Source: Minisyncoccia bacterium (GTDB taxonomy: Bacteria > Patescibacteriota > Minisyncoccia > 2-02-FULL-40-12 > IGHO2-01-FULL-4-A). Taken from it: a stretch of DNA of 64,000 nucleotides. The stretch lies in NCBI GenBank assembly GCA_050015375.1, contig JBEKBN010000006.1:454-64453 (forward strand), in the 5' to 3' direction. Below the pieces are notes generated by a model that did not search any database, had not been told where the DNA came from, and worked only from the letters and a program-made list of their open reading frames with translations. A program made the position numbers and the translations under genes. How positions within the stretch are numbered: position 1 is the stretch's first letter; the number at the start of each line of letters is the position of its first letter. This document shows positions 17,580 through 64,000 of this stretch, in pieces.

Positions 17580-19174
17580 CAGTCGGTTATTATTTTGTCG
17601 CCTTCCCGAACACCGCTAAGGATCTCCACTTTGCCATCGGAACCGTAAAGGCCGGTCTGGATCTGGACTTGAGTTGAGTGGACGCCGTCCGCCGAAAGCA
17701 ATTGGACATATTTATTCCCATTTTCACGGATGATCGTTCTTTGGGGCAAAAACAAAACATTTTGGCGGTTGTCGTTCGAGATATCAAGATTGGCGGTCAT
17801 GCCGGGTTTGATCCGGTCGTCGTTTTGGCTGAGAGTGAAAATAGTTTTGTATGTCGGCACGCCCTCGATAACCGATTCTGAAGGATAGATCTGAGAAACG
17901 ACAGCGTTCCAAGTCACATCCGGACCGTAGGCGTCGAGGGTAACCGTTGCCGGGTCGCCGACTTTGATCTTTGAAACATCAGCTTCTGGAACATTGGATT
18001 CGATCTGGTATTTGTTCATGCCGATGACAGAAACAACCGTGGCCTCGGGAGCAACAATCTCGCCGACCTGGAGATCGAAAGTAGCAATAGTGCCGGCAAT
18101 GGGCGAGCGCAAAGTATTCTTGTCGAGCTGGCTTTGGATCTGAGCCTGACTGGCTTGGGCCTGTGTCAAAGCCGCTTTGGCAATGTCGATGTCATATTGG
18201 GTCGGCGGAGCGATCTTCAAAGCCAGTTGCGACTCCAAGCTGGCGACATTATTTTGAGCGGTGATGATGGCTTGGCCTTGATCGGTAACAGCGGTGATTT
18301 GGGCTAGGACACCGGCTTTGGCCGAAACAATGACCGCTTTGTCAGCATCGGTTGCCGTGATGCCGTTTAAGCCAGTGTAGATATCATCGAGCGCGGTTTG
18401 GGTCAGGACCAAAACATTTTTTACATCCTTGATAAGCTGATTGCCATCCACCAGTGACGGATTAGTTTCATAACCGGAAATTTCAGCCACTAGCCCGCTT
18501 TGCAATACCAAGAATGCCGATGAGTTGTAGTTTCCCAAATTAGGTTTGTCATAAATAGCGAACAGAGCGTCGGCTTTATCGCCAATGATCTTTTGAAATT
18601 GGTCAAAATCAATGTTGGGATATTTTTGGGCGGAGTCGGAAACGGAAACCATTGCATTTATTGCCGTGTTCAAAGCTGTTTTTGCCACTGCCAGCGAGTC
18701 CTTGGTCAAGGTGTCGTTAAGAATGTTTTTAGCGCTGTCCAAACTTGTCTGCAAAACACTGACATCTTCCGGCCGCGGACCCTGGAGAAGCTGATCGTAT
18801 TTGGCCTGTGCCGACTGGACATTGGCCGTGGCGCCAAGAAGCTGGGCTTCCAGGTCGGACGAATCCAATTTGGCGAGAACTTGGCCGGCAGTGACTTTGT
18901 CGCCGACGGCGCCGGAGATGCTGACGACCTTTCCGCTGTGGTCGAACGACAAATTGACCTGGTCATTGGCGGAAATTTGGCCGGTCTCAGAAATAACCTG
19001 CTCAATATTTCCCTTTTGAACAGCGACGGTTTTCAGCGTTGACGGTTTAGCCCGGAACAAAAAAGCTCCGCCGGCCAAGACCAAAACGATAATTCCCGCC
19101 CAAACATATGTCCGGGGGCGTTTGAAAAAGGTCGGCTTCATAATCGGTTGATTTTCATCCATAATGTTATCCAT
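17579..19174 (-). CDS. HlyD-family periplasmic adaptor subunit (MacA-like)
   Basis: N-terminal TM, a long coiled-coil, and beta-barrel/MP domains. I placed the start at MDNIMDENQ (19174) rather than the track's 19207, which reads into the IR element. Confidence 0.75.
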   Translation of the reverse strand: MDNIMDENQPIMKPTFFKRPRTYVWAGIIVLVLAGGAFLFRAKPSTLKTVAVQKGNIEQVISETGQISANDQVNLSFDHSGKVVSISGAVGDKVTAGQVLAKLDSSDLEAQLLGATANVQSAQAKYDQLLQGPRPEDVSVLQTSLDSAKNILNDTLTKDSLAVAKTALNTAINAMVSVSDSAQKYPNIDFDQFQKIIGDKADALFAIYDKPNLGNYNSSAFLVLQSGLVAEISGYETNPSLVDGNQLIKDVKNVLVLTQTALDDIYTGLNGITATDADKAVIVSAKAGVLAQITAVTDQGQAIITAQNNVASLESQLALKIAPPTQYDIDIAKAALTQAQASQAQIQSQLDKNTLRSPIAGTIATFDLQVGEIVAPEATVVSVIGMNKYQIESNVPEADVSKIKVGDPATVTLDAYGPDVTWNAVVSQIYPSESVIEGVPTYKTIFTLSQNDDRIKPGMTANLDISNDNRQNVLFLPQRTIIRENGNKYVQLLSADGVHSTQVQIQTGLYGSDGKVEILSGVREGDKIITD

Positions 19175-19286
19175 CCCGTTAGAAGTCACTGTTGCACAGT
19201 TAATCACATAAGTTATAAAACCTGCTACAGAATGACTTTATAATTGATTCCAATTCGCGAACCCGTTAGGGTGACTTCTAACGGGA
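19174..19286. repeat. 113-bp inverted-repeat element (TCCCGTTAGAAGTCAC ... GTGACTTCTAACGGGA) abutting the macA start codon; copy A of three
   Basis: 16-bp perfect terminal IRs. The element ends exactly at the ATG of the downstream minus-strand gene. Related copies are at 52085-52197 and 58608-58685. Confidence 0.75.
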
Positions 19287-19334
19287 TCCATGATTTTGTC
19301 GTAATTCAGTAATTTTATTATAAATTATAAGAAA

Positions 19335-30038: not shown

Positions 30039-30109
30039 GCGGGATTAGTACAGTGGCAGTACAATTGCTTCCCAAGCAATGGACGCGAGTTCGATTCTCG
30101 TATCCCGCT
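30039..30109 (+). tRNA. tRNA-Gly (anticodon CCC)
   Basis: Acceptor GCGGGAT/ATCCCGC, D-arm GTACAGTGGCAGTAC, anticodon loop TTCCCAA, T-loop TTCGATT. CCA is not encoded. Confidence 0.85.
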
Positions 30110-30269
30110 CAAAAATCAAAAAATTTTTTGATTTTTGAGCGGGTAAGCGAGCAAATTTATTGCTCGCGTCAAGATGAGAACGCCGGAGCGATGTTTCGCG
30201 AGTGATTGGCGAGCGAAACCGCGAGGCGGTGGCTAGACCGAGCCGCCGGAAGGCGGCGAGAGTCGAAGC

Positions 30270-49402: not shown

Positions 49403-49443
49403 AAAGAGCTCCATAATTTGGAGCCCCCGATAACAAGTGAAAT

Positions 49444-49830
49444 TTATTTGAAGAACAAAGTGAAATTGCCGATTATATGGCTGATTTTAGAACGGTTGAT
49501 TTTTTTCAATCCTCCGTCAATGATGTTAATTTCAACTTGGGTCGTTCCATCCGCAATTACGCTGCCAATATCTCGAATCATCACTTGGCCATCGTGGCCA
49601 ACCGCAAACCCACCCGGGATATTGCACTCTGTTTTTTGCAGACGCGTGACAGTGTGATGGAAACGAAGAGCGGTCCAGCACCGATTGCCCCTGCCCTCGG
49701 CAAAGTCGAAACACAAATAACCCCCGTCATCTAGTCGGATGCCGGAAACAGTTGATGAACCGTCTGGTCCATCAATTACATCGCCTACCCGAATTTCACT
49801 TGCGCGCACAACTTCACATTTTTTGATCAT
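49444..49830 (-). CDS. hypothetical protein (128 aa)
   Basis: Last ORF of the minus-strand ABC operon. No motif. The plus-strand alternative is shorter and less plausible. Confidence 0.35.
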   Translation of the reverse strand: MIKKCEVVRASEIRVGDVIDGPDGSSTVSGIRLDDGGYLCFDFAEGRGNRCWTALRFHHTVTRLQKTECNIPGGFAVGHDGQVMIRDIGSVIADGTTQVEINIIDGGLKKINRSKISHIIGNFTLFFK

Positions 49831-49927
49831 TTCGCTCTCCTTTTCGGTTGTGACGGGACTTATTATTGTATATCAATATTATCGAATGTTGTCAATTCCT
49901 GATGGATAGCAGGGGAATATTCAGATG

Positions 49928-50674
49928 TTAAATCTGAATCTTGGAGAAGAGATAACTGCCTAGCGCCAGAAAGATGATGACGATGACCGTGAGAACGATG
50001 AGGTCTGTGGAAAGGCCGAAATTGGAAACTTGACCCGAAAGCGTCGTCCGGATGCCGTCAATGCCGTAACTTAACGGATTGAACTTGGCGATGTCGGTCA
50101 GAACGGACGGTGCGCCATTGAGAGGGAACAAAGCGCCCGACAGAAAGAACAACGGCATGACCAGGAAGTTGATGATAAGTTGAAACCCTTGCATATCGTC
50201 GAGGATAGAAGCGATAGCCGTGCCCAAGGCCGTGAAAAGCAAAGCGATAAGCAAACCGAACAGAAGCGCCAGAAGAACCAGATGAAATGCCGGAACATGC
50301 AGACCAATGAACAAAGAAATGATAAAAATGAGAACTCCTTGCATCAAAGCCACCGTCGCTCCACCCAGCGTTCGGCCGATCATTATCTCAAAACGCGAAA
50401 CTGGCGCCACCAACGTCTCTTTCAGAAAACCGAATTGTTTGTCCCAAATGATCTCAATGCCTGAGAAAACCGAAGTGAATAAAATTCCCATGGCGATGAT
50501 GCCCGGCGCCAAGAATTGGATATAATTACCACCTCCGGCTTTGGCAAAAACCGGCCCGAAGCCATAGCCCAAAGCCACCAAAAACAAGATCGGCTGGCCT
50601 AAAGAGCCGACGATTCTCGCTTTTGACCGCAGATATCTTTTTATTTGTCTCAACCAGAGAATGTAGATTACCAT
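49928..50674 (-). CDS. ABC-2 type transporter permease
   Basis: Six TM helices with the ABC-2 pattern. Adjacent to a DrrA-like ATPase. Confidence 0.75.
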   Translation of the reverse strand: MVIYILWLRQIKRYLRSKARIVGSLGQPILFLVALGYGFGPVFAKAGGGNYIQFLAPGIIAMGILFTSVFSGIEIIWDKQFGFLKETLVAPVSRFEIMIGRTLGGATVALMQGVLIFIISLFIGLHVPAFHLVLLALLFGLLIALLFTALGTAIASILDDMQGFQLIINFLVMPLFFLSGALFPLNGAPSVLTDIAKFNPLSYGIDGIRTTLSGQVSNFGLSTDLIVLTVIVIIFLALGSYLFSKIQI

Positions 50675-50730
50675 AAAAATTAAAATTTATTATCGGCGTC
50701 GCGCGAAGCGCGACGCCGATGCCAATTTTT

Positions 50731-51534
50731 TTATCGCCTCCGCCACAGACGCCCGCGCATCCGCATGTGATCCGCTGCGCCGGCTTCTTCATCGCGGATG
50801 CCATGACCCGTCAGATCAATGAAAGCGTCTTCGAGCAAGGTCTTTCCGGTCTTGGCTTTCAGTTCCTCGGCCGTTCCCTGGGCGACTATTTTTCCGTTAT
50901 CAATGACAGCCATGAGTGTCGCGTTACGGTCTGCCTCTTCCATGTAATGGGTTGTGAAAAAAACCGTCACGCCTTCTTCCTTGTTCAGATCCTTGATATA
51001 GGTCCAGATGTGATTGCGGGTTTGAGGGTCAAGGCCCTGGGTCGGCTCGTCCAAGAACAGGACTTTCGGATGATGCAAAAGCGCCCGGCCGATCTCAAGC
51101 CGGCGTTTCATGCCGCCAGAATATTTTTTGACCTGGTCGTTCCTTCTTTCCCAAAGTTCCAGCAATTTCAATAGCTGTTCAATGCGCGTTCTGCGGGTGG
51201 CTCTGGGAATGCCGTATAAAACTCCGTGAAGGTCCATATTCTCCCTTGCCGTGAGCTCGTCATCCAAACTTTGGTCTTGAAAACAGATACCAAAAGAATT
51301 TCTGACATCATTTTGCTGGCTGACCGGATCTTTGCCGTTGATGCGGATATAACCCGAAGTCGGGTGGAGAAGTGTCGTTAACATCTTGATGGTCGTGGTC
51401 TTGCCGGCGCCGTTGGGACCCAAAAAAGCAAAAACCTCGCCGTGTTTGACGTTGAACGTAATGTTATTAACGGCGGTGAAATCCTTGAATTTCTTGGTTA
51501 GATTTTTGACTTCAATGATCTGTTCGATTTCCAT
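50731..51534 (-). CDS. ABC transporter ATP-binding protein (DrrA-like)
   Basis: Walker A GPNGAGKTTTIKML, signature YSGGMKRRLEIGRAL, Walker B LFLDEPTQGLD. Confidence 0.88.
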   Translation of the reverse strand: MEIEQIIEVKNLTKKFKDFTAVNNITFNVKHGEVFAFLGPNGAGKTTTIKMLTTLLHPTSGYIRINGKDPVSQQNDVRNSFGICFQDQSLDDELTARENMDLHGVLYGIPRATRRTRIEQLLKLLELWERRNDQVKKYSGGMKRRLEIGRALLHHPKVLFLDEPTQGLDPQTRNHIWTYIKDLNKEEGVTVFFTTHYMEEADRNATLMAVIDNGKIVAQGTAEELKAKTGKTLLEDAFIDLTGHGIRDEEAGAADHMRMRGRLWRRR

Positions 51535-51569
51535 GTGTGAATATTACCTAAAACATCATGAGGTAAAAA

Positions 51570-52085
51570 TTAAGAATCCTTCGAGATCAAGCTGGCCGTG
51601 AAATATCCGACGATGATCCCGATAAGCGCGCCGCCGAGAATATCAGAAGGATAATGGACGCCGGCCATGACTCTGGCGACGCCCATCACGATACTGCCAA
51701 CAAAGAACGCCGTTCCCCAGCGTTTGTTGTAATAAAATATTATCATTGAAAGCGCGAAGAAGAAACTGGCGTGGCCGGAGGGAAAAGAATTGCCGCTCTC
51801 GGAGACGAGCTGGTGAACCTGATAAATAGCGAATGGCCGGGGATGATGGTAAAAATATCGGATGACCGTGGTCAAAATCCCGCGGGAAATGAAAACCGAA
51901 ATAATTCCGGCCCAAAAAACTTTCCAGCGAGTCGCCAAGAAAGGTTTCAACCATAAAAAGACCAAAAATAAAATTCCCAAAAGATACGCCCAGTAGATGG
52001 CGAAAAAAACCGTGAGCCAACTCAAAAAACCCGGCGAGCCGACGAGATCGTTCAAAGCAAAAAATATTTTTGTATCCAGATTCAT
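51570..52085 (-). CDS. PAP2-family phosphatase (undecaprenyl-diphosphatase-like)
   Basis: PAP2 motifs PSGHASFFFAL and GVHYPSDILGGALIG. I placed the start at MNLDTKIFF (52085), not the track's 52118, which reads into the IR element. Confidence 0.75.
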   Translation of the reverse strand: MNLDTKIFFALNDLVGSPGFLSWLTVFFAIYWAYLLGILFLVFLWLKPFLATRWKVFWAGIISVFISRGILTTVIRYFYHHPRPFAIYQVHQLVSESGNSFPSGHASFFFALSMIIFYYNKRWGTAFFVGSIVMGVARVMAGVHYPSDILGGALIGIIVGYFTASLISKDS

Positions 52086-52197
52086 CCCGTTAGAAGTCAC
52101 TGTTTCACAGCTAATCACCTAATTTATACAACTAACGACAGCTGACTTAATTAAAGTATCTATGGTTGCAAACCCGCTAGGGTGACTTCTAACGGGA
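52085..52197. repeat. 113-bp inverted-repeat element, copy B (TCCCGTTAGAAGTCAC ... GTGACTTCTAACGGGA), abutting the PAP2 start codon
   Basis: Same length and terminal 16-bp IRs as copy A. About 40 bp at each end are conserved and the centre is divergent. Confidence 0.75.
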
Positions 52198-52207
52198 TTC
52201 ATTTTAT

Positions 52208-52663
52208 TTAACGGTTTTCGGCCTTGCTGGCGTAATAGTTCTCGATCAAGCCGGTGATGATTATCGCCAGAATTATCACGCCGACCACGAGCATGAAAAT
52301 ATCAAAAGTGTCGGGAAAAGCATAAACGCATAGGCGATTCAACGTCGTGCAGTTAAGCAAAAGTCCGATCTCATCGGCGAACAAACCGATGCCGGCGCCG
52401 ATAAAAATACTGGCCACCTCCAGCGGTCGTTTGTCCCGGCTAAGCACGCCCAGCACTCCACCGACGGAAAGAAAAAGCATACCGTAGAAAAAATGGTGGA
52501 TATGAAAGCCGTGAATATATATCACGCGGGTGACATACAAGGAATATAACCTTGCTCCAACAAAAAAGATCAAGAACGAAACCAGGATAACATTCAAAAG
52601 CCGTTTTTTTTCGTCCTTAAAATTGAAGATCCATCTGAAGGACCTGATGACCAAATTGGACAT
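52208..52663 (-). CDS. hypothetical membrane protein
   Basis: Four TM helices. No motif. Confidence 0.45.
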   Translation of the reverse strand: MSNLVIRSFRWIFNFKDEKKRLLNVILVSFLIFFVGARLYSLYVTRVIYIHGFHIHHFFYGMLFLSVGGVLGVLSRDKRPLEVASIFIGAGIGLFADEIGLLLNCTTLNRLCVYAFPDTFDIFMLVVGVIILAIIITGLIENYYASKAENR

Positions 52664-52701
52664 TTCTCAATTTTACGACAAAAAATGATTCTGCGCCAGT
52701 A

Positions 52702-52965
52702 TTAATTTTTCTTGTTGACCCAATTCCAAACGGCGGCGAACAACCAGCCCACGATATACCAGGCCACGAAAGCCATGATCATCAATCCCACGAACCGCAG
52801 AATGGTCACGCCTTTGATTACGAAAGGATTGGCCAAATAATGCATCCTAAAAACCAGATCCAAGCCCCATTTTCCCAAACCGATCAAAACCACGATCGTC
52901 CACAAAAAATGAACAATGACCCCGAAAACTCCCAACGCAAGACCAGTTTTATTTTGATTTAACAT
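52702..52965 (-). CDS. small hypothetical membrane protein
   Basis: Two or three TM helices. 87 aa. Confidence 0.4.
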   Translation of the reverse strand: MLNQNKTGLALGVFGVIVHFLWTIVVLIGLGKWGLDLVFRMHYLANPFVIKGVTILRFVGLMIMAFVAWYIVGWLFAAVWNWVNKKN

Positions 52966-52996
52966 TTAACACCCCCTTTCTATATATTTATTCTGC

Positions 52997-53067
52997 TGCG
53001 GGGCCTGGACTCGAACCAGGATCTTCAGATTCAGAGTCTGACGAGACTACCAATTGCTCAACCCCGC
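52997..53067 (-). tRNA. tRNA-Gln (anticodon CTG)
   Basis: Reverse complement has acceptor GCGGGGT/GCCCCGC, anticodon stem TCAGA/TCTGA with loop CTCTGAA, and T-arm CCTGG-TTCGAGT-CCAGG. Confidence 0.8.
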
Positions 53068-53166
53068 AATATTTGCATTATGCCTTAAAATTATTATTTT
53101 TTCAAATAAAATACCCCATGTTGTGCGTGTTAAGCGACAACATGGGGTCGTCTTTTTTCGGGCGTT

Positions 53167-55140
53167 TTATGTTGTTGGAGATTCCGACTTCAGAGCCGGA
53201 ACCTGTTTGGAGAACATTCCCGTCAAGGTAGCAGCCAAGCCGTCAAGAGAACCGCCACCGCCAGCCACAAGGATCTCGGGTACGATCTTGATGCCCTTGT
53301 CGGCCAAAACAGTGGCAATGTTGACAAGCATCGTGCCGGTCTGGCCGATAGCTTCATTTTGAGCCCTGAAGCCCTCGGCCTTGGCCACGCCCTGAGCTTT
53401 AATAACAGCGGCTTGGGCAAGACCAGTTTGTTCGACATACTTGGCCTCGCCTCGCCCTTCCTGTTCCCGAGCGTCGGCATTGTTTTTCTTGATGTCAATA
53501 CCAACCGCGGACTTAGCCAGGTCCTTTTGCATGTCAGCCTTGCCCGTTGCCTGTTCGGTCTCAATTCGCTGGTCCTGGGCGGTTCTTTGCATCTTGAATG
53601 TTGCCACCTGCTGATTGGCGATCTCCCGCTCAGTCAGAACTTTTACCAGTTCTTCGGGAAGCATGACATTCTGAATGTAGACGCCCTTTGTTTCAACCAT
53701 GTACACCTCAAGTTGCCTTGAGATGTGATCAGTTGCTTCCTCCTGAACTTTCTGCCTTGTCTCGATGAAAGTGACGGCTGGCATTCCGCCGAGTTTGTCT
53801 CGGAAGAGATTACCCACGGCTGCCTGAAGAACCTCGTTGACGAGATTCAGCATACTCCCAACCATGGAAATCACATAGGGTGCTTTTGTATCCGGGACAT
53901 GGATCAAAACCTGGAGATCAATGGTGAACACAAACCCCTCACAGCTCTTGGCCACAATAGGACTGAGCTTTTCGTCAAGTTTGTGGGCACCAGTAACACC
54001 TTCCGACCAGTCAAGCTTGAGAATGGCCGTGGGAACTACCTCGGCCTGGTAGATTCGCGGGTTAATGGGATACTTGCCGGTACGAAGCGGCTCTTCCCAA
54101 ATTCCGCGATGGCCGGGCTTGACCAGCGAGCCAAACTTGAATTCGGTGCCAGAAGTGTCTTCGGTGGGCAGGCCGACGTATGCCTTAATCACCGCCACCT
54201 GACCTTGTTCCACGACGAGCATAGGAACTTTCTCGACGCGAACAAGGAACGGGTTGAGGTTGTAGGCGCCATAGAGCAGTGGATCATGCTGGAGTCCGAT
54301 TTTGCCGCCTTTATCCAGGAAGGTCTGGAAATCCTGGTAGCTATTATGCGCGACATTCTTGCTACCAAGGATCGTCTCAATTAATTTGGCGTTTGTCGCG
54401 CCGCTTGATTCGAGCCCTTTGACATCATTGAACCCATCGAGACGACTGGCAATGTCACCTTCCGAGAGTGATTCTCCTTCAAGGGCAATGACAACACCGA
54501 CCATGTCAATGACATGTCCACCTTCCGTGGCTTTTGGTTCAATCCGAGTCACATCGAGACAGTCCACGTTGTCTTTCAGTTGATCCCATGCCTTGAAGGT
54601 GAGTTCTCCGTCCTTTGCAAGACGCCGAAGCTCTTCAGAAACTGGGACGCCGAAAACTTGCAGTTTGGTAATGACCAAAAAGGCCACAGGATGGATCGGA
54701 GCCAGAGTTCCCGGAGAAAGCACTGGCCGCTGGACACCCTTCTGGCCATCTTTAGTGATGAAGATGTCCAGGTCCGTGAAATTACCGAATTCAGATTTGT
54801 AAACCGCGGACTTGACACCCATTGGCGTTGGCTTGCCAACCTGGGCGATCACCACACCGATCTGACCGGCCGGAACTTGAACCCAAGGATGTTTGGTTAC
54901 AGCGTATAGAAAACAAAGCTTGAATCGGAGACCAGGCATCAACAATTCAGCCTGATATCCTGCCTCTTTGTGAAAAGCGATCGGATTGTCACCAGGCAGT
55001 TTTTTGCCGAAACGTTTTCTCACCAATCCGACCTGCGTGGGTCCGATTGAGTAGATTGAGCAGAAAACGACTAGAAGCACAACAAGTCCAAGAAAGGCTA
55101 AAAGCCCTCCAAGAACGAAAGCATCGAGATTAGGTGCCAT
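53167..55140 (-). CDS. flotillin-family (SPFH/band 7) membrane protein
   Basis: N-terminal TM, an SPFH domain and a long Ala/Glu-rich coiled-coil (flotillin EA repeats). 657 aa. Confidence 0.8.
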   Translation of the reverse strand: MAPNLDAFVLGGLLAFLGLVVLLVVFCSIYSIGPTQVGLVRKRFGKKLPGDNPIAFHKEAGYQAELLMPGLRFKLCFLYAVTKHPWVQVPAGQIGVVIAQVGKPTPMGVKSAVYKSEFGNFTDLDIFITKDGQKGVQRPVLSPGTLAPIHPVAFLVITKLQVFGVPVSEELRRLAKDGELTFKAWDQLKDNVDCLDVTRIEPKATEGGHVIDMVGVVIALEGESLSEGDIASRLDGFNDVKGLESSGATNAKLIETILGSKNVAHNSYQDFQTFLDKGGKIGLQHDPLLYGAYNLNPFLVRVEKVPMLVVEQGQVAVIKAYVGLPTEDTSGTEFKFGSLVKPGHRGIWEEPLRTGKYPINPRIYQAEVVPTAILKLDWSEGVTGAHKLDEKLSPIVAKSCEGFVFTIDLQVLIHVPDTKAPYVISMVGSMLNLVNEVLQAAVGNLFRDKLGGMPAVTFIETRQKVQEEATDHISRQLEVYMVETKGVYIQNVMLPEELVKVLTEREIANQQVATFKMQRTAQDQRIETEQATGKADMQKDLAKSAVGIDIKKNNADAREQEGRGEAKYVEQTGLAQAAVIKAQGVAKAEGFRAQNEAIGQTGTMLVNIATVLADKGIKIVPEILVAGGGGSLDGLAATLTGMFSKQVPALKSESPTT

Positions 55141-55256
55141 AATTTTACCTCCTTTTACGTGTTTTTAAACATCAAAAAACACTAGTTAGACCATCCAACC
55201 AGTGTTCATTTATAATATACCAATAAGGTAAAGGATGTCAATAGCCACTAACTTTC

Positions 55257-56543
55257 ATGACCGTTTCTGATATAATTAAACAAATGGAGGAAAAAGAAAA
55301 TGAATTGAAATTCCCCAACGGGTTTTTGTGGGGGACGGCCACGTCAAGCTATCAGATAGAAGGTGGAATAAATAATTGCGACTGGGCCCAAGCGAATCGC
55401 GGTCCCTCGACAAGTTCAGGACATCAGATTCCTGATGCTGGGCGCGCTTGCGATAGTTACAATAAATACGAGGAGGATTTTGATATTGCCAAATCGCTTG
55501 GCCAGAACGCCCACCGTTTCTCTATAGAATGGGCGCGGATCGAGCCGGAAGAGGGAAAATTCGACGAGAAAGAAATCGAGCATTATAAAAAAGTGCTGGA
55601 CGCCTTGCGAACTCGCCCCCACACTCAAGATTTGAGTGTGGGGGGAACGGGATTGGAACCATTCGTGACCCTTTGGCATTTCACGCTTCCGGTTTGGTTC
55701 GCGAAAATGGGCGGTTTCGAAAATCCGAAATCACCGGAAATATTTTCCCGATATTGCGAATTTGTCGTTGGCAAAATGGGGGATAGAGTTCACCCTGTTA
55801 AATCCGGCGAAGCCGGTGCCGCGGAGCGGCAATTTAACAGGGTAAAATTCTGGGTAACTATAAACGAACCGATGGTTTATGCCTCGAATGGTTACCGAAA
55901 AGGTCAATGGCCGCCGTTTGAAAAAAATATTTTCAGGTTCATGAAGGTTATCAAAAATCTAATCATGTCGCACAATCTAGCATATGACAAAATCAAGAAC
56001 ATTGATCCTTCGGCTCAGATCGGCATCGCTAAAAATAATATAAATTTTGAGGCAAATTGGAACCCAATCAATCGCCTCTTGTCAAGCTTTCTGAATTTTT
56101 TCTGGAATCGCAGATTTTTGAATAAAATTTCACAGGATTTCATCGGTTTGAATTATTATTTCCACAAAAAGTTCGGGGATAGGGCGAAGTATCCGAAATC
56201 CGACATGGGTTGGGATATTTATCCGAAAGGAATTTATAATTTGCTGATGGAACTGAAAAAATATGGTAAACCGGTTTACATCACCGAAAACGGATTGGCG
56301 GACAAAGAAGACAAACAACGCGCCGATTTCATCCGTGAACATTTGAAATGGGTTTCGAGAGCGATCCGGGATGGCTCTGACTGCCGCGGATATTTTTATT
56401 GGTCGCTTCTGGATAATTTTGAGTGGGCGGAGGGTTACAAACAAAAATTCGGTTTGGTGGAAATTAATTTTGAAACAATGGAAAGAAAGATCAGGAATTC
56501 AGCGTGGGAATTTGCAAAAATTTGTAAAAATAACGAAATATGA
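55257..56543 (+). CDS. glycoside hydrolase family 1 (beta-glucosidase-like) carrying two in-frame palindromic insertions
   Basis: FLWGTATSSYQIEGG, TINEP (acid/base) and ITENGLA (nucleophile). Carries insertions RTRPHTQDLSVGG and HPVKSGEAGAAERQFNRV relative to canonical GH1. Confidence 0.88.
   Translation: MTVSDIIKQMEEKENELKFPNGFLWGTATSSYQIEGGINNCDWAQANRGPSTSSGHQIPDAGRACDSYNKYEEDFDIAKSLGQNAHRFSIEWARIEPEEGKFDEKEIEHYKKVLDALRTRPHTQDLSVGGTGLEPFVTLWHFTLPVWFAKMGGFENPKSPEIFSRYCEFVVGKMGDRVHPVKSGEAGAAERQFNRVKFWVTINEPMVYASNGYRKGQWPPFEKNIFRFMKVIKNLIMSHNLAYDKIKNIDPSAQIGIAKNNINFEANWNPINRLLSSFLNFFWNRRFLNKISQDFIGLNYYFHKKFGDRAKYPKSDMGWDIYPKGIYNLLMELKKYGKPVYITENGLADKEDKQRADFIREHLKWVSRAIRDGSDCRGYFYWSLLDNFEWAEGYKQKFGLVEINFETMERKIRNSAWEFAKICKNNEI
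55616..55644. repeat. palindromic element CCCCCACACTCA-AGATT-TGAGTGTGGGGG (copy 3), in frame in GH1
   Basis: Perfect 12-bp arms. Encodes RPHTQDLSVGG, inserted before the conserved GxEPFVTLxHxxLP block. Confidence 0.75.
55793..55842. repeat. second, distinct GC-rich palindromic insertion (CCCTGTTAAAT-28 nt-ATTTAACAGGG), in frame in GH1
   Basis: 11-bp perfect arms. The loop itself holds two hairpins (CCGGC-GAA-GCCGG and GCCGC-GGA-GCGGC). Encodes about 16 extra residues between GDRV and KFWVTINEP. Confidence 0.65.
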
Positions 56544-57427
56544 TCTGGATCCTTCTGGCAATTCTGTCCCAATTCATCTCCGCCGGCGTTTACATGGCCG
56601 ACAAGTATCTTGTTGGACCCAAAGCCATCGGCCGGCCGGTGGTTTACGCCATCTATGTCTGCTTGCTTTCGGGTTTCGTTTTGGTTTTATTGCCTTTTGG
56701 CGTGGTTTTGCCGCTGACCTGGCCGCTAATTGCGCTTTGTCTGGGGATCACGGTTGCTTTCACGACTTCCCTATTATTTCTTTATTCCGCTCTTAAAACT
56801 TCTGATGTTTCGGATGTGGCGCCGGTCATGGGCGCGATCTCGGCCGTGGCCACATTGGCTTTCGGACTGTATTTTTTGGATTCAATGCTGCCCAGATTAT
56901 TTTTCATCGGCTTTCCGCTTTTGATATTCGGGACTTTTCTGATGTCGCGTTTTCGGTTTAATAAGAAATCCTCCTTTTATGTTATCGCCGCCGGAATTCT
57001 TTTCGGACTTTCATCGATTTTAATAAAAATATTGTTCGGAGAAACCTCATTTCTTAACGCGTTTTTCTGGTCGCGGATGACGAATGTTTTCGGCGCGATA
57101 ATTTTACTTTTGTGGCCGGCGAATTTCAAAGCCGTGTTCAGCAATGTCAAAAGTTCGACCGGCGGAACGAAAATTTTGGTCGTCGGCAACAAAACGCTGG
57201 CCGGTATCGCCTATCTCTTATCGCTGGTGGCAATAAAACTCGGCAATGTTACCGTCGTCAACTCATTGGCCGGTTTTGAATTCGTTTTTATTTTGCTTCT
57301 GGCTTTTATTTTCACTTATAAATTTCCGAAATATTTTCAAGAGGCCGTTCACAACAAAAACGACCGGCTGAAAAAGATCTGGGCTTCGGGTTTGATAATA
57401 ATCGGGTTCGTGATCATGTTCCTATGA
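56540..57427 (+). CDS. hypothetical polytopic membrane protein (about 10 TM)
   Basis: 295 aa and strongly hydrophobic. No motif. Confidence 0.5.
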   Translation: MIWILLAILSQFISAGVYMADKYLVGPKAIGRPVVYAIYVCLLSGFVLVLLPFGVVLPLTWPLIALCLGITVAFTTSLLFLYSALKTSDVSDVAPVMGAISAVATLAFGLYFLDSMLPRLFFIGFPLLIFGTFLMSRFRFNKKSSFYVIAAGILFGLSSILIKILFGETSFLNAFFWSRMTNVFGAIILLLWPANFKAVFSNVKSSTGGTKILVVGNKTLAGIAYLLSLVAIKLGNVTVVNSLAGFEFVFILLLAFIFTYKFPKYFQEAVHNKNDRLKKIWASGLIIIGFVIMFL

Positions 57428-58509
57428 AGAAGCACAAAAAATATTTTTCAATTCCCATTATCCTTTTCTTGATCCTTTTGGTTTTAACCTTGGCTTGGAA
57501 TTTGCTTTCCATCAGGCCGGTTCCCGAAAAAGTAAATTACGGCGTTTCGTTCAGCGTTTTTCATTCCAACGAACTCAATCTGGATTGGAAAAAAACATAT
57601 TTGGCGATCTTAGACGATCTTAAGGTCAGGAACTTGCGGCTTACCGCTCATTGGCCGCTGACCGAGCCGGCCGACGGCAAATACGATTTCTCAGAATTGG
57701 ATTTTCAGATAAACGAAGCCGATAAACGCGGCGCGACCTATATTCTGGCCGTCGGCCGGCGCCTGCCCGGCTGGCCGGAATGCCATGTGCCGGATTGGGT
57801 TATGAATCAAGAATCACAAATCACGAATCAAGGTGAAAAAACTGATTTTGAGAACCAAAAGTTATTGGAATATATTCAGACGACCGTTGAGCGTTACAAA
57901 AATTCCCCCGGTCTGAAATATTGGCAAGTCGAGAATGAACCGTTCCTAGGATTTTTCGGCCGTTCGAGCTGCCAATTGACCGACGAGAATTTTTTCAAAC
58001 AGGAGATCGCTCTTGTCCATAAACTCGATCCGACCCATCCGGTTCTGGCGACCGACAGCGGCGAGTTCGGCTATTGGTATCAGGCCTACCGCGACGGTGA
58101 TGTTTTCGGCACCTCCTTGTATCTGTATGTTTGGTGGCGGGCGCTTGGCATCGGCCCCTTGCGTTATCCCATCGGGCCGTCGTTTTTCCGAGTGAAGCAA
58201 AATGTGGTTGATTTTATCGGTTGTGTCTTGGGCGATTCACCCTCACACTCAATTTTTGAGTGTGAGGGCAAGCCGACAATTCTCATTGAACTGGAAGCCG
58301 AGCCCTGGCTTTTAACACCGATCGTTGACGCGCCGATGGCGACTCTCCTTGACCGGATGGGGATTGATAAATTCGAAACCATGATCCAAACCGCCAAAGA
58401 AGCCGGTTTTGGCGACCAATATCTCTGGGGCGCCGAGTGGTGGTATTGGATGGAACAAAATGGCCATCCGGAATTTTGGCAGGCGGCGAAGCAACTTTTT
58501 AACCAATAA
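57424..58509 (+). CDS. glycoside hydrolase, clan GH-A (GH5/GH113-like)
   Basis: Signal/TM N-terminus, then YWQVENEPF (acid/base NEP) and LIELEAEPW (nucleophile Glu). The family is not resolved. Confidence 0.55.
   Translation: MKKHKKYFSIPIILFLILLVLTLAWNLLSIRPVPEKVNYGVSFSVFHSNELNLDWKKTYLAILDDLKVRNLRLTAHWPLTEPADGKYDFSELDFQINEADKRGATYILAVGRRLPGWPECHVPDWVMNQESQITNQGEKTDFENQKLLEYIQTTVERYKNSPGLKYWQVENEPFLGFFGRSSCQLTDENFFKQEIALVHKLDPTHPVLATDSGEFGYWYQAYRDGDVFGTSLYLYVWWRALGIGPLRYPIGPSFFRVKQNVVDFIGCVLGDSPSHSIFECEGKPTILIELEAEPWLLTPIVDAPMATLLDRMGIDKFETMIQTAKEAGFGDQYLWGAEWWYWMEQNGHPEFWQAAKQLFNQ
58240..58268. repeat. palindromic element variant CCCTCACACTCA-ATTTT-TGAGTGTGAGGG (copy 4), in frame in the GH-A hydrolase gene
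   Basis: Both arms carry a compensatory change (C to T paired with G to A), so pairing is preserved. Encodes SPSHSIFECEGKP. Confidence 0.75.
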
Positions 58510-58607
58510 TCCGTAATGTATATTAGGGGTCTTTAAACTTGCAAAAACATTTAAATATTTTCCGCTAAAGGTAGATTTGCCCGCGGCGGAAAAAATATAA
58601 ACATGAA

Positions 58608-58685
58608 TCCCGTTAGAGAGCGTGATTTAATTCAACATTTTAGACCGGTTGAATTACACGATTTTAACGGGACTCTCTAACGGGA
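58608..58685. repeat. 78-bp inverted-repeat element, copy C (TCCCGTTAGAGAG ... CTCTCTAACGGGA), abutting the htrA ATG
   Basis: 13-bp terminal IRs related to copies A and B, with an internal TTTTAACGGG half-site. Ends ...TCTAACGGG ATG. Confidence 0.7.
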
Positions 58686-59956
58686 TGAATAAAAAAGAAA
58701 TTTCCAGGTTTTTCAGAAGACATTTTATGCTGACCACGATCGTGGCTTGTCTGATCGTCTCGGCACTGGCCGGCGGAATCGTCGGCTATTACAGCGTCGA
58801 GGGCGCGCTTGGCCAGAAACCGGCTTTGCCGAATTTTGTCAAGCAACTGATCAATCCTCAAGCCGGCAATTCAACACCCGCTTTTACCAACGAACAATCT
58901 CAGGTCATCAGCGTCGTCAAAAGCGCCTCACCGGCGGTGGTCAGTATCGTGGCTTCAAAAGATCTGACCACGGTTGAGCAGAACGGCTACAATCCGTTCC
59001 AGGATTTTTGCAGCGATCCGTTCTTCAAACAATTTTTCGGCGACCAGTGCGATTCGGCAACGCCGGCGCCGAAATCCACGACCCAGAAACAACAAGTCGC
59101 GGCCGGCACCGGATTTTTGATAACTTCCGACGGTTTGATCCTGACCAACAAGCATGTCGTTGACATTTCGGGCGCCGATTTCACGGCCATCACCAGCGAC
59201 GGCAAAAGTTATCCGGCCAAGATCTTGGCCACCGATCCGGTTTTGGATGTGGCCTTGGTCAAAATTTCCGGGACTAATTTCCCAACCTTGCCTTTGGCCG
59301 ATTCGAGCCAAATTCAGATCGGTCAGACGGTCATCGCCATCGGCAACGCTTTGGGCCAATTCTCGAACACGGTTTCAAAAGGCGTAATTTCCGGCCTTTC
59401 CCGTTCGATTACCGCCGGAGACAATGCCGGTTCTTCGGAAACGCTAAACTCCGTTATCCAAACCGATGCCGCCATCAACCCGGGTAATTCCGGCGGACCG
59501 CTTTTGGATCTGAGCGGCAATGTCATTGGCATCAACACCGCCATTGCCCAAGGCGCCCAAAATATCGGTTTTGCCATTCCTATCAATCAAGCCAAAAAGG
59601 ATATCGGCCAGGTTAAAACCAGTGGCAAGATCAGCACCGCATACCTTGGCATTCGCTACATCGCCATTGACGACACGGTCAAACAGGAAAATAATCTGAC
59701 GGTGAATTACGGCGCGCTGGTAGTCAGAGGCGACACTCAGGATCAGGTGGCGGTCATGCCCGGCTCGCCGGCCGATATCGCCGGCATCAAAGAGAACGAC
59801 ATTATTCTCGAGGTTAACGGAACCAAAATAGACCAGAACAACGACCTGGCGACATTGCTTCAAAAATACAATGTCGGCCAAACGATCCAGCTGAAAGTTT
59901 TAAGCCAAGGAAAAGAAAAAACCGTTTCGGTGAAACTGGTGGAGAGACCTCAATGA
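58685..59956 (+). CDS. htrA: HtrA/DegP-family serine protease with a PDZ domain
   Basis: Trypsin-like core (TNKHVV...D...GNSGGPLLDLSGNVIGINTA) plus a C-terminal PDZ. I placed the start at the ATG at 58685, not the track's 58649, which is inside the IR element. Confidence 0.85.
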   Translation: MNKKEISRFFRRHFMLTTIVACLIVSALAGGIVGYYSVEGALGQKPALPNFVKQLINPQAGNSTPAFTNEQSQVISVVKSASPAVVSIVASKDLTTVEQNGYNPFQDFCSDPFFKQFFGDQCDSATPAPKSTTQKQQVAAGTGFLITSDGLILTNKHVVDISGADFTAITSDGKSYPAKILATDPVLDVALVKISGTNFPTLPLADSSQIQIGQTVIAIGNALGQFSNTVSKGVISGLSRSITAGDNAGSSETLNSVIQTDAAINPGNSGGPLLDLSGNVIGINTAIAQGAQNIGFAIPINQAKKDIGQVKTSGKISTAYLGIRYIAIDDTVKQENNLTVNYGALVVRGDTQDQVAVMPGSPADIAGIKENDIILEVNGTKIDQNNDLATLLQKYNVGQTIQLKVLSQGKEKTVSVKLVERPQ

Positions 59957-59963
59957 TCCATCG

Positions 59964-60001
59964 AAGAGCGGCCCGCTCGCGAGCGAGCGGGCCGCTCTTC
60001 A
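59964..60001 (+). terminator. GC-rich 17-bp perfect stem-loop after htrA (no U-tract)
   Basis: GAAGAGCGGCCCGCTCG-CGAG-CGAGCGGGCCGCTCTTC. Probably a transcript-end or processing structure. Confidence 0.4.
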
Positions 60002-60020
60002 TAACAGTATGTTGCTTTAA

Positions 60021-60049
60021 CCCCCACACTCATGCATGAGAACGGGGGC
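60021..60049. repeat. degenerate intergenic copy (copy 5) of the CCCCCACACTCA palindromic element
   Basis: CCCCCACACTCATGCATGAGAACGGGGG has a left arm identical to the family and a decayed right arm. Confidence 0.5.
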
Positions 60050-60098
60050 CAACAATTTTTTTGTTGAATAAATACTTTATTTGTTGTAGAAATGGGGA

Positions 60099-60527
60099 AT
60101 GACGGAAGGTGAGAAAAAATATTTACTGGCGCGGCTGGATGACCTGTCGGGATCGCTCGAAAAAAATATTGGCGGCGCCGATCTGAAAAATATTTTGGAA
60201 TCCGAAAAAATGGTCTTGAAAATGAAACTGGATATTTTGTCGTTGCCGGTTTCGGAAAATGTTAACATGGATTTGCTGAAAAAACCTCGAACTTCGAGTA
60301 TCGGATTTATCCACAGGTTGGGAAATAAAAAAAATCGAGAGGAGATCGAAAAAAAGATTTTGGATCTGATCGGCGATAGGTTAGAAGTTGATAGCCAAGA
60401 AATTTACGCTTTCCTTCCCGAAATTAACAAACGAAACGTCCGGAGAGTGCTAAGCCAGCTTGTCGCGTCAGGAAGGATCAGAAGAGCGGTAAAGGGTAAT
60501 TTGGCGTTCATCAGCCGAATTGAATAA
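60099..60527 (+). CDS. hypothetical protein (142 aa)
   Basis: Charged coiled-coil-like protein. No motif. Confidence 0.45.
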   Translation: MTEGEKKYLLARLDDLSGSLEKNIGGADLKNILESEKMVLKMKLDILSLPVSENVNMDLLKKPRTSSIGFIHRLGNKKNREEIEKKILDLIGDRLEVDSQEIYAFLPEINKRNVRRVLSQLVASGRIRRAVKGNLAFISRIE

Positions 60528-61278
60528 AAGTGAGGAAAATCAGTTGTGCCGCCTCGGTTGCCGCCTCTAGGTTTAGAGGCAAAAAACGGGGGCTGGCCGT
60601 CTTCCCGGCCCGGCCGAGAAGATGGCCAGCCGACCCGCCGGCAGACCTTATCCACAGCCATTTGCTTGTGGACGGCGCGCGCGGGTTCTACAATGTATTC
60701 ATAACCGTTTAATTATCCACACTTTCGGGCTTGTATGATGTGTGGCTGATAGCATAAAATAAGGTAACGGTTAGTTTCGATGACGATGGTTGACGCAGGG
60801 AAAGGGTTTTGCTAGTATTGAGTGCGAGCCGCAAACAGACGGAGTTCATTGTTTGTTGACGGATATAAACAAGGAAAATCAATGCTTTTAAGAGATCGGA
60901 AAACTGCTGTCAGAAAGTAACCGTTTTGGTTGTTTTTTGCGTTATGCGGATCAATGTCAGTGCGAACTCTAATTACTAATGGCTATTCTTCGCTCCGACA
61001 TTGGTCTACATGGAATGGACATTGAAAACCGAATATATTGTTGCTCTTGATTGAAATTCTATGTAAGTTTTCTATTGATATTGTTGAGTCTTAAATCGGT
61101 CGAGCAAACGTGTTGGCGATAAGGGTCCGTGGTCGAACCCGGATCCGAAATAGCCAGACATGGTAAATCAAGACTCTAGTTTAAGACAAGGAATTATTTC
61201 TCTATTGTTCCCGGGTCAATTGACAAGGGAGCGATAAAGATATGACCGAATAAAAAAGGTCAAAAAATAAAATTAATT

Positions 61279-64000
61279 ATGAGTATTAACTTATCCAACC
61301 GCGGTTCCTTGAAAAAGGTTCTTCCGGTTGTAGTCATTGCGGCAGCGATGCTGGCAGTGGCGGGGTATGTCTGCTTCTCGGCGATTCAAGCCAGCGCAGC
61401 CACGCCTGCACAATACGGATTAAAGGAAGGCATGACCATCAGCGCGGTCGGTTCCAACGATCCGGATGTCTATATCATCAATGACGCGGGTTACAAGAGA
61501 TTGTTCATCAACCCGATCATTTTCAATATGTATGGTCAGTTGGGTGGATTCGCTGACGTACATTCCGTCTCGGCGGCAGTCCGGGACGCTTTCCCGACAT
61601 CGGGATTGTTCCGAAACTGCGAAGCCAACACCCAAGCAGTTTACGGCCTTGAAGTTACCGGCGAAGACACCGGTGTCCTTCACTGGGTGAATGTTACCGG
61701 CGATCAGGCGGTAGCCCAGGACCCGAACTTCTTCCAGAAAGTTTTCTGCATCAACAACAATGAGTTTAATTGGTACACGAATAATGGAACGAATTTCGGA
61801 GCCAATTATTCCTCAATCAGCCAGATCCCGAATTATTCCAGAACACCGGGAGTAACTCCGACATACACTCCAATTCCCAGCGGCCCGATTTCAGTAAGCT
61901 TAGCTTACGACAATCCGCCGTCTGGCACATTAGTCAAATCACAGGCAGCCGCTGATCTCGCCCATTTCCAATTCACCGGAAATAGCGTGGTCACCAATAT
62001 CCAATTTAACAGAATTGGCATCTCGGCTGACACCGACTTGGCTAATGTCTATCTGTACGATGGCGTGAAGCGTTTGACCGATGCCGCGAGCGTCACAAAT
62101 GGCCAGATCACTTTCAACGACACAAGCCCAACCGGCTTATTCACGGTCAATGGCTCACGGGTCATTTCCGTGCGTTCAGACCTGTCATCGAGCACCGGAG
62201 AAACTGTTGGAATTCAGCTCGTCCGCGTTAATGGCAATGCCGTTAACATTTCGGGCAACTTATTTACTGTTGCCAATGCTACATTGGCTACGGTTGTCCT
62301 TTCCAATGGAACAACTCCGGCCGCGAATGATTCTCTTGATCCGGCGAGCGATGTCGTGGTTTGGCAGGATACTGCCACTATCGGCACCCGTTATGTTTGG
62401 ATGAAGAGCTTGCAGATTCGAGTTATCGGTTCTGTCTATGTCGGCGACCTTCAGAACTTCCGTCTCTTAGTTGACGGCGTTCAACAGGGCCAGGCAATTT
62501 CGCAGTCCGATGCCAACGGTTATGTCGTGTTTGATTTGTCCGGTGCTCCGGTAAAACTTGAAACCGGCGGACGCGTCTTGAAAGTTTTGGCTGATGTCAT
62601 CAATGGCTCCAGCAGGAATTTCACGGCGTCATTGCGTCAAGCTCCAGACATATTCGTAGTTGATAACCAGTATGGTCAGAATGTGTTAGCCACGGTCCTT
62701 ACCGGTTCGTTCCCGGACAGCGCCGGCGAACAGACCATCAGCTCCGGCACTTTGACCTTCACCAGAACGCAAGATTCTCCATCGGGAGATGTAGTTAAAG
62801 GCGCCTCTGGCGTGACCTTGGCCAGGTTTGAATTAAAGGCCAATGGTGAAAAGATGAAAGCCGAAAGCTTACGGGCCAATGTTACTTATGCTCCGTTAGG
62901 AGTTACCGGCGCGAAAGCCGCATTTACCCTTCGTAACGGCGCACTGTTCGTCTATGATGAAGCGGCTGGAGTTTCTACGGCTACCCAGATCGGCAGTACC
63001 GCCGCTCTCTGCGGTTCCGGCAATCACACTTGCTCGGGCTATTCAGCTGCCGCCTCGCTTTCCTACACATCATACAGCCTGGGTTCTTCTTTGATCGTTG
63101 AACCGGGCCATCCGAAGATCATTGAAATTCGTGCTGACGCGTATGATGACGGCGATGCTACCGCGTTAACTTCAACCGATACCCTTGTTGCCAACTTTGC
63201 TATCGGCTCGACCAATGTTCAGAGCTTAACCTCTCTGGCATACACAAATGGTCCTACGGCCGCTAAAGCAGGCAATATATTGACCGTAAAAACCGGTTCA
63301 TTCTCCGTTGCAAAATACACGGGTTATGCCAACCAATCAGCGGTAACGCCGTCAAATGGCGTTAAGATCGGACACTTCACATTAATCGATACATCTACCG
63401 AAGATATCAACGTCAATACGATTACCTTCGATGTTGATCAATCCGGCAATATCGGTGCTACTTCGATTACAGACGCTTATATCAAGGTCTATAATGATAC
63501 CGGCTCTGTGATTTACACTTCGCCTTCTAAGGCCAGCATTTCAGTTTCTGCGTCAAACAGCTATTCGGTAAACTTTGTCATACCGAAGAATAAGACCTAT
63601 CAGGTTGAAGTTTGGGGTAATATCGCCGCCGGCCTTACAGCTACGACTGATTACTTCGACTTGAACTTAGACGCTTCTGGAATAACCACAAGTTCTTCCA
63701 CTACCGCGACGGCCACGCAGGCCACCGGACAGGTTATTACAATCCGGTCAGGTTCGTTGAATACCGCTAATGGTGCGGTTCCAGCAGCTCGATTGATCAA
63801 CGGAGGCCAGAGAGCGAATGTCTATAGCTTCACCATTACGCCGACTTATGACGACTACACGCTTGATGAAGTTTATGTGGATATCGCAAGCGGAACCGTT
63901 GCTTCAAACAGCGGTGCGGTTGCCAACTTGTACTTAACGGACGGTTCAACAACCTTGGGTACGGCCACATTAAACAGTTTGACTGGTTCGGCCTCATTCA
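61279..64000 (+). CDS. giant repeat-rich surface (S-layer/adhesin-like) protein, 5' part (partial, runs off window end)
   Basis: ATG at 61279. Signal peptide VLPVVVIAAAMLAVAGYVCFSAIQASAA, then more than 900 codons of open frame rich in T/S/N/G beta-repeat sequence to the window end. Not listed in the ORF track because it is open-ended. Confidence 0.7.
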   Translation, partial: MSINLSNRGSLKKVLPVVVIAAAMLAVAGYVCFSAIQASAATPAQYGLKEGMTISAVGSNDPDVYIINDAGYKRLFINPIIFNMYGQLGGFADVHSVSAAVRDAFPTSGLFRNCEANTQAVYGLEVTGEDTGVLHWVNVTGDQAVAQDPNFFQKVFCINNNEFNWYTNNGTNFGANYSSISQIPNYSRTPGVTPTYTPIPSGPISVSLAYDNPPSGTLVKSQAAADLAHFQFTGNSVVTNIQFNRIGISADTDLANVYLYDGVKRLTDAASVTNGQITFNDTSPTGLFTVNGSRVISVRSDLSSSTGETVGIQLVRVNGNAVNISGNLFTVANATLATVVLSNGTTPAANDSLDPASDVVVWQDTATIGTRYVWMKSLQIRVIGSVYVGDLQNFRLLVDGVQQGQAISQSDANGYVVFDLSGAPVKLETGGRVLKVLADVINGSSRNFTASLRQAPDIFVVDNQYGQNVLATVLTGSFPDSAGEQTISSGTLTFTRTQDSPSGDVVKGASGVTLARFELKANGEKMKAESLRANVTYAPLGVTGAKAAFTLRNGALFVYDEAAGVSTATQIGSTAALCGSGNHTCSGYSAAASLSYTSYSLGSSLIVEPGHPKIIEIRADAYDDGDATALTSTDTLVANFAIGSTNVQSLTSLAYTNGPTAAKAGNILTVKTGSFSVAKYTGYANQSAVTPSNGVKIGHFTLIDTSTEDINVNTITFDVDQSGNIGATSITDAYIKVYNDTGSVIYTSPSKASISVSASNSYSVNFVIPKNKTYQVEVWGNIAAGLTATTDYFDLNLDASGITTSSSTTATATQATGQVITIRSGSLNTANGAVPAARLINGGQRANVYSFTITPTYDDYTLDEVYVDIASGTVASNSGAVANLYLTDGSTTLGTATLNSLTGSASF

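Follow-up and report, generated by a model that had tools for sequence, protein, structure and literature searches.

A short palindromic mobile element at the start codon of an htrA-like gene and its mainly patescibacterial family

In a Minisyncoccia bacterium, the start codon of an htrA-like serine protease gene coincides with the last base of a 78-nt inverted-repeat element (copy C), one of three related copies in the analyzed stretch of contig JBEKBN010000006.1 (64,000 nt, referred to as the window). This arrangement raises the question whether the repeat is a leader that serves to control htrA or a piece of mobile DNA that landed on it and, in the latter case, how the gene may still be translated. 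The full explanation that we propose combines a MITE-like insertion, a family of copies residing at start codons, coupled translation of the host gene and a transposase supplied in trans, and we regard it as probable when taken as a whole. Its parts are of different strength and are presented below together with the alternatives that bear on each of them.

Copy C and its relatives within the window

The preliminary description had presented 58608-58685 as a shorter, 78-nt third family member fused to the htrA start, and this assignment is borne out (Table 1). The termini TCCCGTTAGAGAG and CTCTCTAACGGGA are complementary at 13 of 13 positions, enclose 52 nt and occur with zero mismatches only at 58608-58620 (+) and 58673-58685 (-), and A58685 doubles as the last base of copy C and as the A of the htrA ATG (58685-58687). 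A paired-termini pattern run over the window matched copies A, B and C only, at a chance expectation of 0, and no real copies beyond these three appeared in the whole window when two mismatches were allowed in the termini.

The three copies have the outer termini TCCCGTTAGA/TCTAACGGGA in common. Inward of the shared TCCCGTTAGA, copies A and B read AGTCAC/GTGACT and copy C reads GAG/CTC, both arms being matched so that pairing is kept, as had been described before. The same tendency holds across the family, where Watson-Crick pairing past the 10-bp terminal core extends over 3.4 bp within a copy versus 0.97 bp between arms of different copies. These matched changes had been interpreted as compensatory substitution to preserve pairing, but they are equally expected from the inverted ends of any diverging mobile-element subfamily. 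An extra TAACGGG half-site is present in copy C and its position also agrees with the preliminary description: it adjoins the 3' arm in copy C (58662-58672), whereas in copies A and B, read in gene orientation, it follows the 5' arm as CCTAACGGG. A direct repeat that includes a start codon brackets all three copies (in gene orientation ATGGAT for copy A and ATGAAT for copies B and C), and in each case the gene-side repeat opens a long ORF, encoding an HlyD-like efflux adaptor, a PAP2 phosphatase and the HtrA-like protease, respectively.

Table 1. Coordinates of the element copies, the features of copy C and the in-frame copies at other loci (L numbers designate loci outside the window).
Feature	Position	Strand	Details
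Copy C of the mobile element	58608..58685	+	78 nt, T-CCCGTTAGA...TCTAACGGG-A; the terminal A provides the first base of the rebuilt htrA ATG
Copy C 5' terminal inverted-repeat arm	58608..58620	+	TCCCGTTAGAGAG
Copy C 3' terminal inverted-repeat arm	58673..58685	+	CTCTCTAACGGGA; includes TAA 58678-58680, which ends the upstream short ORF
Copy C inner hairpin	58621..58660	+	CGTG/CACG at 58621-24/58657-60; TAATTCAAC/GTTGAATTA at 58628-36/58648-56; from predicted folds
Copy C internal 'decoy' half-site	58662..58672	+	TTTTAACGGGA; direct copy of the 3' arm end, complementary to the 5' arm
Original (distal) htrA start region ATGAA	58603..58607	+	ATG 58603-58605; left target duplication TGAA 58604-58607
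Short ORF from the old start codon	58603..58680	+	MNPVRERDLIQHFRPVELHDFNGTL; 25 codons + TAA; ends 4 nt before the htrA ATG
htrA-like serine protease gene	58685..59956	+	423 aa, Trypsin_2 + PDZ; source gene call and Pfam families
Right copy of target duplication TGAA at htrA	58686-58689	+	
Copy A	19174..19286	-	113 nt; abuts the ATG of the minus-strand HlyD/efflux-adaptor-like gene 17579-19174
Copy A target duplication TGGA	19170-19173 and 19287-19290		TCCA on the + strand
Copy B	52085..52197	-	113 nt; abuts the ATG of the minus-strand PAP2 phosphatase gene 51570-52085
Copy B target duplication TGAA	52081-52084 and 52198-52201		TTCA on the + strand
In-frame insert, L007	2402-2472		
In-frame insert, L044	2535-2605		
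In-frame insert, L076	1149-1216		
In-frame insert, L080	2235-2305		
In-frame insert, L120	1986-2059		

As RNA, copy C is predicted to form one long hairpin of -33.1 kcal/mol (z = -6.6), a stability that was reached by 0 of 200 shuffles. In this lowest-energy fold the A and U of the htrA AUG are paired with a probability above 0.95. An alternative predicted fold, in which the 5' arm pairs with the decoy half-site, leaves the AUG free at -25.4 kcal/mol and is weaker than the full stem at -33.5 kcal/mol. The decoy is kept as AACGGGACT among C-type copies. Seven C-type copies vary in sequence over the inner hairpin and yet have such a hairpin in their predicted consensus fold, although they align only loosely in that part. 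A scan of the htrA surroundings for promoters and terminators found no consensus promoter upstream and no terminator. Searching the whole window against Rfam at the gathering score gave no match for the element, while RNase P and tRNAs did appear, and copies C and A searched at E up to 10 gave chance-level matches only. In the full-text literature, which was also queried with the motif itself, no description of the element family was found.

The window contains other repeats as well. Another palindromic repeat, GC-rich and unrelated to the element, TC(A/G)CCC(C/T)CACACTCA-N5-TGAGTGTG(G/A)GGG, occurs at 25053-25087, 55613-55647 and 58237-58271. Two of its copies lie inside ORFs (GH1 and GH42-like), and in the GH42-like protein the repeat forms an 11-aa insert, SPSHSIFECEG, which is present in a 98% relative (L123) and absent from 60%-identical syntenic orthologs (L124, L127). 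A 40-nt palindrome, TCCCCCACTTTTTGAGTTGCCCCAAAAGTGGGGGA, is found twice (12339-12378 and 12423-12462) within a match to bacterial RNase P RNA at 12313-12810 on the minus strand; this match measures 498 nt against 367 for the model, and the sequence suggests that the RNase P gene may carry inserted hairpins. Immediately after a tRNA gene (30039-30109) lies a perfect 25-nt-arm palindrome, CCCGCTCAAAAATCAAAAAATTTTT / AAAAATTTTTTGATTTTTGAGCGGG, at 30104-30143. In the ENA assembly ERZ27250144, the copy-A gene is located on k141_242281 (31 kb) and htrA on k141_408795 (131 kb); the positions concerned are 17579-19766 and 48700-64000, so that the window joins sequence that is kept apart there.

Insertion at the htrA start and dispersal of the family

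The origin of copy C follows from a comparison with related loci. A locus from a different metagenome (L123) encodes an HtrA that is 98% identical (P0001), and its upstream gene, intergenic DNA and coding sequence match the window at nearly every base. It has exactly 82 nt fewer, a single ATGAAT, and its htrA site is without similarity to the element arms. The filled site is also present on a second contig (L002), and in the syntenic GH1-EamA-GH42-HtrA loci L124-L127, at 62-65% protein identity, the intergenic region measures 46-61 nt and holds no element. Since the element is missing from a 98%-identical htrA locus that shows a clean empty site, it is mobile DNA and not a conserved htrA leader. 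Copy C thus represents a recent insertion of a non-autonomous MITE-like element within the first htrA codons. As TGAA was duplicated and the last base of the element is an A, ATGAAT was rebuilt directly after it and the native N-terminus of HtrA was kept; in other words, the target duplication and the element's own terminal A recreated the start codon. The region upstream of this codon had been proposed to lie outside the HtrA coding sequence, and it does: nine HtrA orthologs start at the second-ATG position, none of them has the MNYTILTGLSNG extension, and orthologs that start at the position of 58685 measure 405-425 aa.

A second presence/absence pair is formed by L150/L151 (empty) and L142/L149 (filled). 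When an empty site was sought for copy A, the identical protein was found on one other contig only, which appears to be filled as judged from its 160-nt upstream gap, and the next homolog is 55% identical.

To the family we assigned copies found by scanning contigs, one genome per species, for two exact 10-mer termini 41-97 nt apart, a sample that is biased by those termini; the 10-bp terminal core is common to all copies found with this search pattern. The scan returned at least 120 loci from more than 100 species, mostly Patescibacteria. Among the matches listed, the patescibacterial classes are Saccharibacteria, Paceibacteria/Parcubacteria groups and Kerfeld-, Doudna- and Levyibacteria, and the other bin labels are Omnitrophota, Planctomycetota, WOR-3, Elusimicrobia, Nitrospirae and others, although such labels of metagenome-assembled genomes may be wrong. 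Six family copies lie on viral contigs, and about ten C-type copies with the same decoy come from groundwater metagenomes. Copies are 57-130 nt long and are devoid of a transposase gene of their own. The pair outside CCCG...CGGG belongs to the inverted repeat and is mostly T..A, which makes A the usual last base of the element; in L056, L116, L063 and L082 it is G..C or C..G.

Family copies sit overwhelmingly at start codons, with few in-frame inside genes. Of the 136 copies among the matches listed, 103 (76%) have one end, and one only, immediately next to the ATG of an ORF that spans 50 aa or more. The second codon of the host genes is biased toward purine-purine (K, N, S, E, R, D), which points to A|TGRR as the preferred target. 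A crude count in the same loci gives about 290 ATGRR sites at gene starts versus about 1,640 in intergenic DNA, and a preference for ATGRR combined with loss of gene-disrupting insertions would predict about 15% of copies at starts, far below what is observed and therefore insufficient as an explanation of the bias. The host genes are unrelated housekeeping genes, murE, lexA, smc, yidD and macB among them. Some five short copies instead form stop-free inserts of 24-26 codons that encode xPVRS...SNGx in the reading frame of their genes, which code for MraW/RsmH, a family-2 glycosyltransferase, GatB, UvrC and an M17 aminopeptidase (PepA). Orientation relative to the gene is regular as well: in the long subfamily the 3' arm, which is bulged, points toward the gene in all of roughly 23 copies as read from the oriented list, the decoy faces the gene in all of about ten C-type copies, and among related pairs identified by k-mer comparison 134 have the same and 30 the opposite orientation.

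The flanks of the copies bear on the mode of insertion. Identical 4-nt flanks on both sides are found in 67 of the 103 gene-associated copies among the matches listed, and 4-nt repeats occur at non-start sites too (CGAA, TTTA, CATG, CCCG). The target duplication varies from 2 to 5 nt, is mostly 4 nt long and has N|TG as its constant anchor toward the gene. In tandem double insertions (L095, 5472-5588 and 5594-5710; L138, 3' end directly upstream of the second copy), the second element landed in the ATGAA that had been rebuilt by the first. The combination of terminal repeats and a short target duplication suggests that a transposase is supplied in trans. A search for an autonomous parent covered about 1 Mb of loci and asked for an ORF between exact or 1-mismatch termini at a distance of 0.3-4 kb. 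Its only hit, 38530/40360, was discarded as a chance pair with ends that deviate from the consensus termini, and no autonomous parent was found.

One class of junctions departs from this scheme. In about 12 copies, associated with unrelated genes and lineages, AC(T/C)TG stands directly 5' of the element and only TG is repeated (left junctions at L018, L028, L030, L037, L050, L061, L062, L067, L077, L084, L142/L149 and L147), where about 0.2 such copies are expected by chance. The L142/L149 site of this class lies 7 nt past the stop of an upstream ABC ATPase gene, and a 71% ortholog that lacks the element has an ATGA overlap between the two genes. Stem extension, TTG/CTG starts, promoter spacing, transposase hosts and the orthologous empty site were each considered for this class and fail to explain it. 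Together with the variable duplication length, the class is a misfit with a simple fixed-stagger cut and leaves room for a recombinase-type or other non-standard insertion mechanism. If a tyrosine or serine site-specific recombinase moved the element in place of a DDE transposase, the joined ends TCTAACGGG-ATGAAT-CCCGTTAGA would constitute a dif- or lox-like site, in which two inverted arms flank a short core, and the apparent duplication would be the shared crossover core. The variable repeat length with its constant N|TG anchor, the copies that share only TG and the fixed orientation within the long subfamily (about 23 copies) and the C-type (about 10) all speak for such an enzyme. Nevertheless, we consider it unlikely, given that the empty site is without similarity to the arms and that most copies show a plain 4-nt repeat of arbitrary sequence, as is typical of staggered-cut transposition; moreover, an unsystematic look found no recombinase nearby.

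The preliminary description had raised the possibility that htrA translation responds to envelope stress or temperature through this structure, which would make the element a dedicated cis-regulatory RNA (a thermometer or envelope-stress switch) evolved to hide the htrA start codon. The paired A and U of the AUG, two mutually exclusive conformations of which the -25.4 kcal/mol one leaves the AUG free, a stem stability well above that of shuffles and the envelope proteins encoded by the three host genes of the window are what one would expect from such a regulator. Yet the element is absent from the ortholog at 98% identity and from every syntenic ortholog examined, and it occurs at genes as unrelated as murE, lexA, smc and yidD. 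Envelope functions are not enriched among its hosts, an N-terminal hydrophobic segment being predicted in 25% of them versus 27.5% of control ORFs, and Rfam provides no match. In addition, sense folding is only slightly favored over antisense folding (57 versus 46 copies, p = 0.04), and this asymmetry is a no more than marginal sign of RNA-level selection on the sense strand. We therefore regard the dedicated-regulator reading as largely refuted and very unlikely to hold. Pairing of the AUG in the predicted hairpin may still affect htrA translation, as a side effect of the insertion.

Proposed translation of the genes carrying an insertion

With copy C established as an insertion, the remaining question is how ribosomes might reach a start codon embedded in a predicted stable stem. 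The original start codon is kept upstream of the element as ATG in 72 of the 103 gene-associated copies and as GTG in 2 more. In 18 of these 72 copies a -10-like hexamer is found before the upstream ATG, with a peak at a distance of 6-7 nt; other copies have GGAG-like motifs upstream, as seen by eye. A spacing of 6-7 nt is expected when transcription starts at the A of ATG, as it does in leaderless genes. The position of the hexamer suggests that the initiation signals stay with the upstream ATG.

Downstream of this codon, the element interior is stop-free in the old-ATG frame in 36 of 74 copies (49%). The two remaining forward frames are stop-free in 11 and 9 of 74 copies and shuffled sequences in 16%; the excess persists after clustering similar copies. 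The short ORF ends at a TAA in the 3' arm 4 nt before the gene ATG in 23 copies including copy C. In 9 copies its stop is the TGA contained in an ATGA overlap, and in 3-4 copies it reads into the gene. Among the relatives of copy C, conservation of the short-ORF peptide is confined to its ends, which are encoded by the arms; hence the act of translation, and not the peptide, seems to matter.

Since one frame is stop-free and the arms build stops near the gene AUG, termination-reinitiation is the most economical reading of these sequences, which suggest that the host gene is translated in this way. For copy C, native initiation signals would remain with the upstream ATG. Translation would begin at this codon, and ribosomes moving along the 25 codons of the short ORF would melt the hairpin on the way, terminate at the 3'-arm TAA 4 nt before the htrA AUG and then reinitiate. 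The decoy may assist by holding the 5' arm during transcription: pairing that forms first would leave the AUG region open. Copies A and B, in which the short ORF terminates early (63 and 33 nt ahead of the gene's start codon, respectively), fit termination-reinitiation less neatly.

A Shine-Dalgarno-like GGAG/GAGG is present in the 3' arm of 6 of the 14 copies from bins with labels other than Patescibacteria versus 6 of the 89 others. In L049, L113, L096, L083, L010, L068 and L012 the arms have the variant form GACCTC.../...GAGGTC, by which a Shine-Dalgarno-like GGAGG comes to stand 9-11 nt ahead of the gene ATG; this variant is enriched in bins labelled Omnitrophota or Planctomycetota. This bias hints at a possible adaptation of the arms to the initiation mode of the host.

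Programmed bypassing is known from phage T4 gene 60 and the yeast mitochondrial 'byp' elements, and here it would require that the ribosome leaves the upstream AUG-AAU and lands on the identical AUG-AAU past the hairpin. Most copies do have identical stretches of 5-6 nt on either side of a compact hairpin, but the repeat is accounted for by target duplication, no stop follows the take-off codon (AAU) and some copies lack any repeat. As the stop-free frames and the stops at or near the gene AUG favor reading through over hopping, we hold bypassing to be extremely unlikely.

A more far-reaching extension of termination-reinitiation, which we put forward tentatively and with some doubt, is that the copies form an undescribed superfamily of start-codon-homing 'stealth' elements that act as a mobile translational control module. 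The ends would be built such that insertion spares the gene, the terminal A and the duplicated TG rebuilding the ATG, while the 5' arm would be open in the old-ATG frame and the 3' arm would provide TAA, an ATGA overlap or read-through depending on the frame. Such elements would have spread through the first codons of often leaderless genes in Patescibacteria and related groundwater phyla, and each gene hit would become a two-cistron unit, with translation dependent on both a short ORF and a hairpin that can switch.

Relation to known elements and significance

The element is a MITE or palindromic selfish element with unusual features. The copies are short, have terminal inverted repeats and target duplications, encode no transposase, are dispersed and show presence/absence polymorphism; we know of no parent insertion sequence. 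The closest parallels are the Correia elements of Neisseria (CREE/NEMIS), ERIC/IRU and the pneumococcal RUP, which are non-coding elements of about 60-150 nt that are co-transcribed with genes and can alter their expression. The present family resembles them in its short size, inverted termini, hairpin, short target duplication, dispersed copies, strain polymorphism and place inside transcription units. Unlike them, it is positioned with base precision on start codons (76%) and rebuilds the ATG, keeps one frame open with 3'-arm stops that adjoin the gene AUG and has the same 10-bp termini across many classes of Patescibacteria and some other phyla.

Rickettsia palindromic elements (RPEs) are selfish palindromic DNA inserted in-frame within protein-coding genes. 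Similar to RPEs, about five family copies are in-frame and stop-free inside proteins, but most copies, including copy C, are located at a start codon and display a clear target duplication. Copy C lies upstream of the HtrA N-terminus and is no coding insert of this type, whereas five other members are. We know of no sequence similarity between the element and RPEs. The layout of copy C also recalls translational coupling and control by leader ORFs, of which the ermC and cat leaders and the ATGA/TAANNNNATG type of termination-reinitiation are examples. Copy C likewise has a short upstream ORF that traverses a predicted hairpin in which the start codon is paired, with the stop 4 nt before the gene AUG; in other copies the stop overlaps that AUG as ATGA. 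In contrast to these systems, it is a mobile element that brings the arrangement along and creates it upon insertion, and neither a stalling signal nor a ligand is evident.

We give next to no credence to the idea that the element is an integron attC site or an extragenic palindrome of the REP/REPIN type mobilized by a RAYT (IS200/IS605-like) enzyme: its hairpin, its similar size (60-120 nt) and its conserved ends around a variable interior are reminiscent of REPINs, and GTTAGA/TCTAAC resembles the integron core GTTRRRY/RYYYAAC, but REPINs (REP doublets) are extragenic and RAYT-tied, REPINs and attC sites make no target duplications such as those seen here, the copies sit at start codons and inside ORFs instead of after genes, the order GTTAGA...TCTAAC is the reverse of that in attC and the neighbors are housekeeping genes, not cassette arrays.

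To our knowledge, no small mobile palindrome has been described that sits base-precisely on start codons and rebuilds them. What is unusual in the present family is the combination of residence at the start codon, a start rebuilt from the element's own terminal base and a frame that is open up to the gene AUG. The filled and empty alleles between 98%-identical strains provide population-genomic markers. If start-targeting and rescue by translation hold true, the duplicated start codons would be a hazard for gene calling, with spurious N-terminal extensions such as MNYTILTGLSNG. Patescibacteria are almost unstudied experimentally, and the insertions would then allow leaderless and coupled translation to be studied in this group as a natural experiment. 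The family would also represent a new persistence strategy for selfish DNA in tiny, gene-dense genomes.
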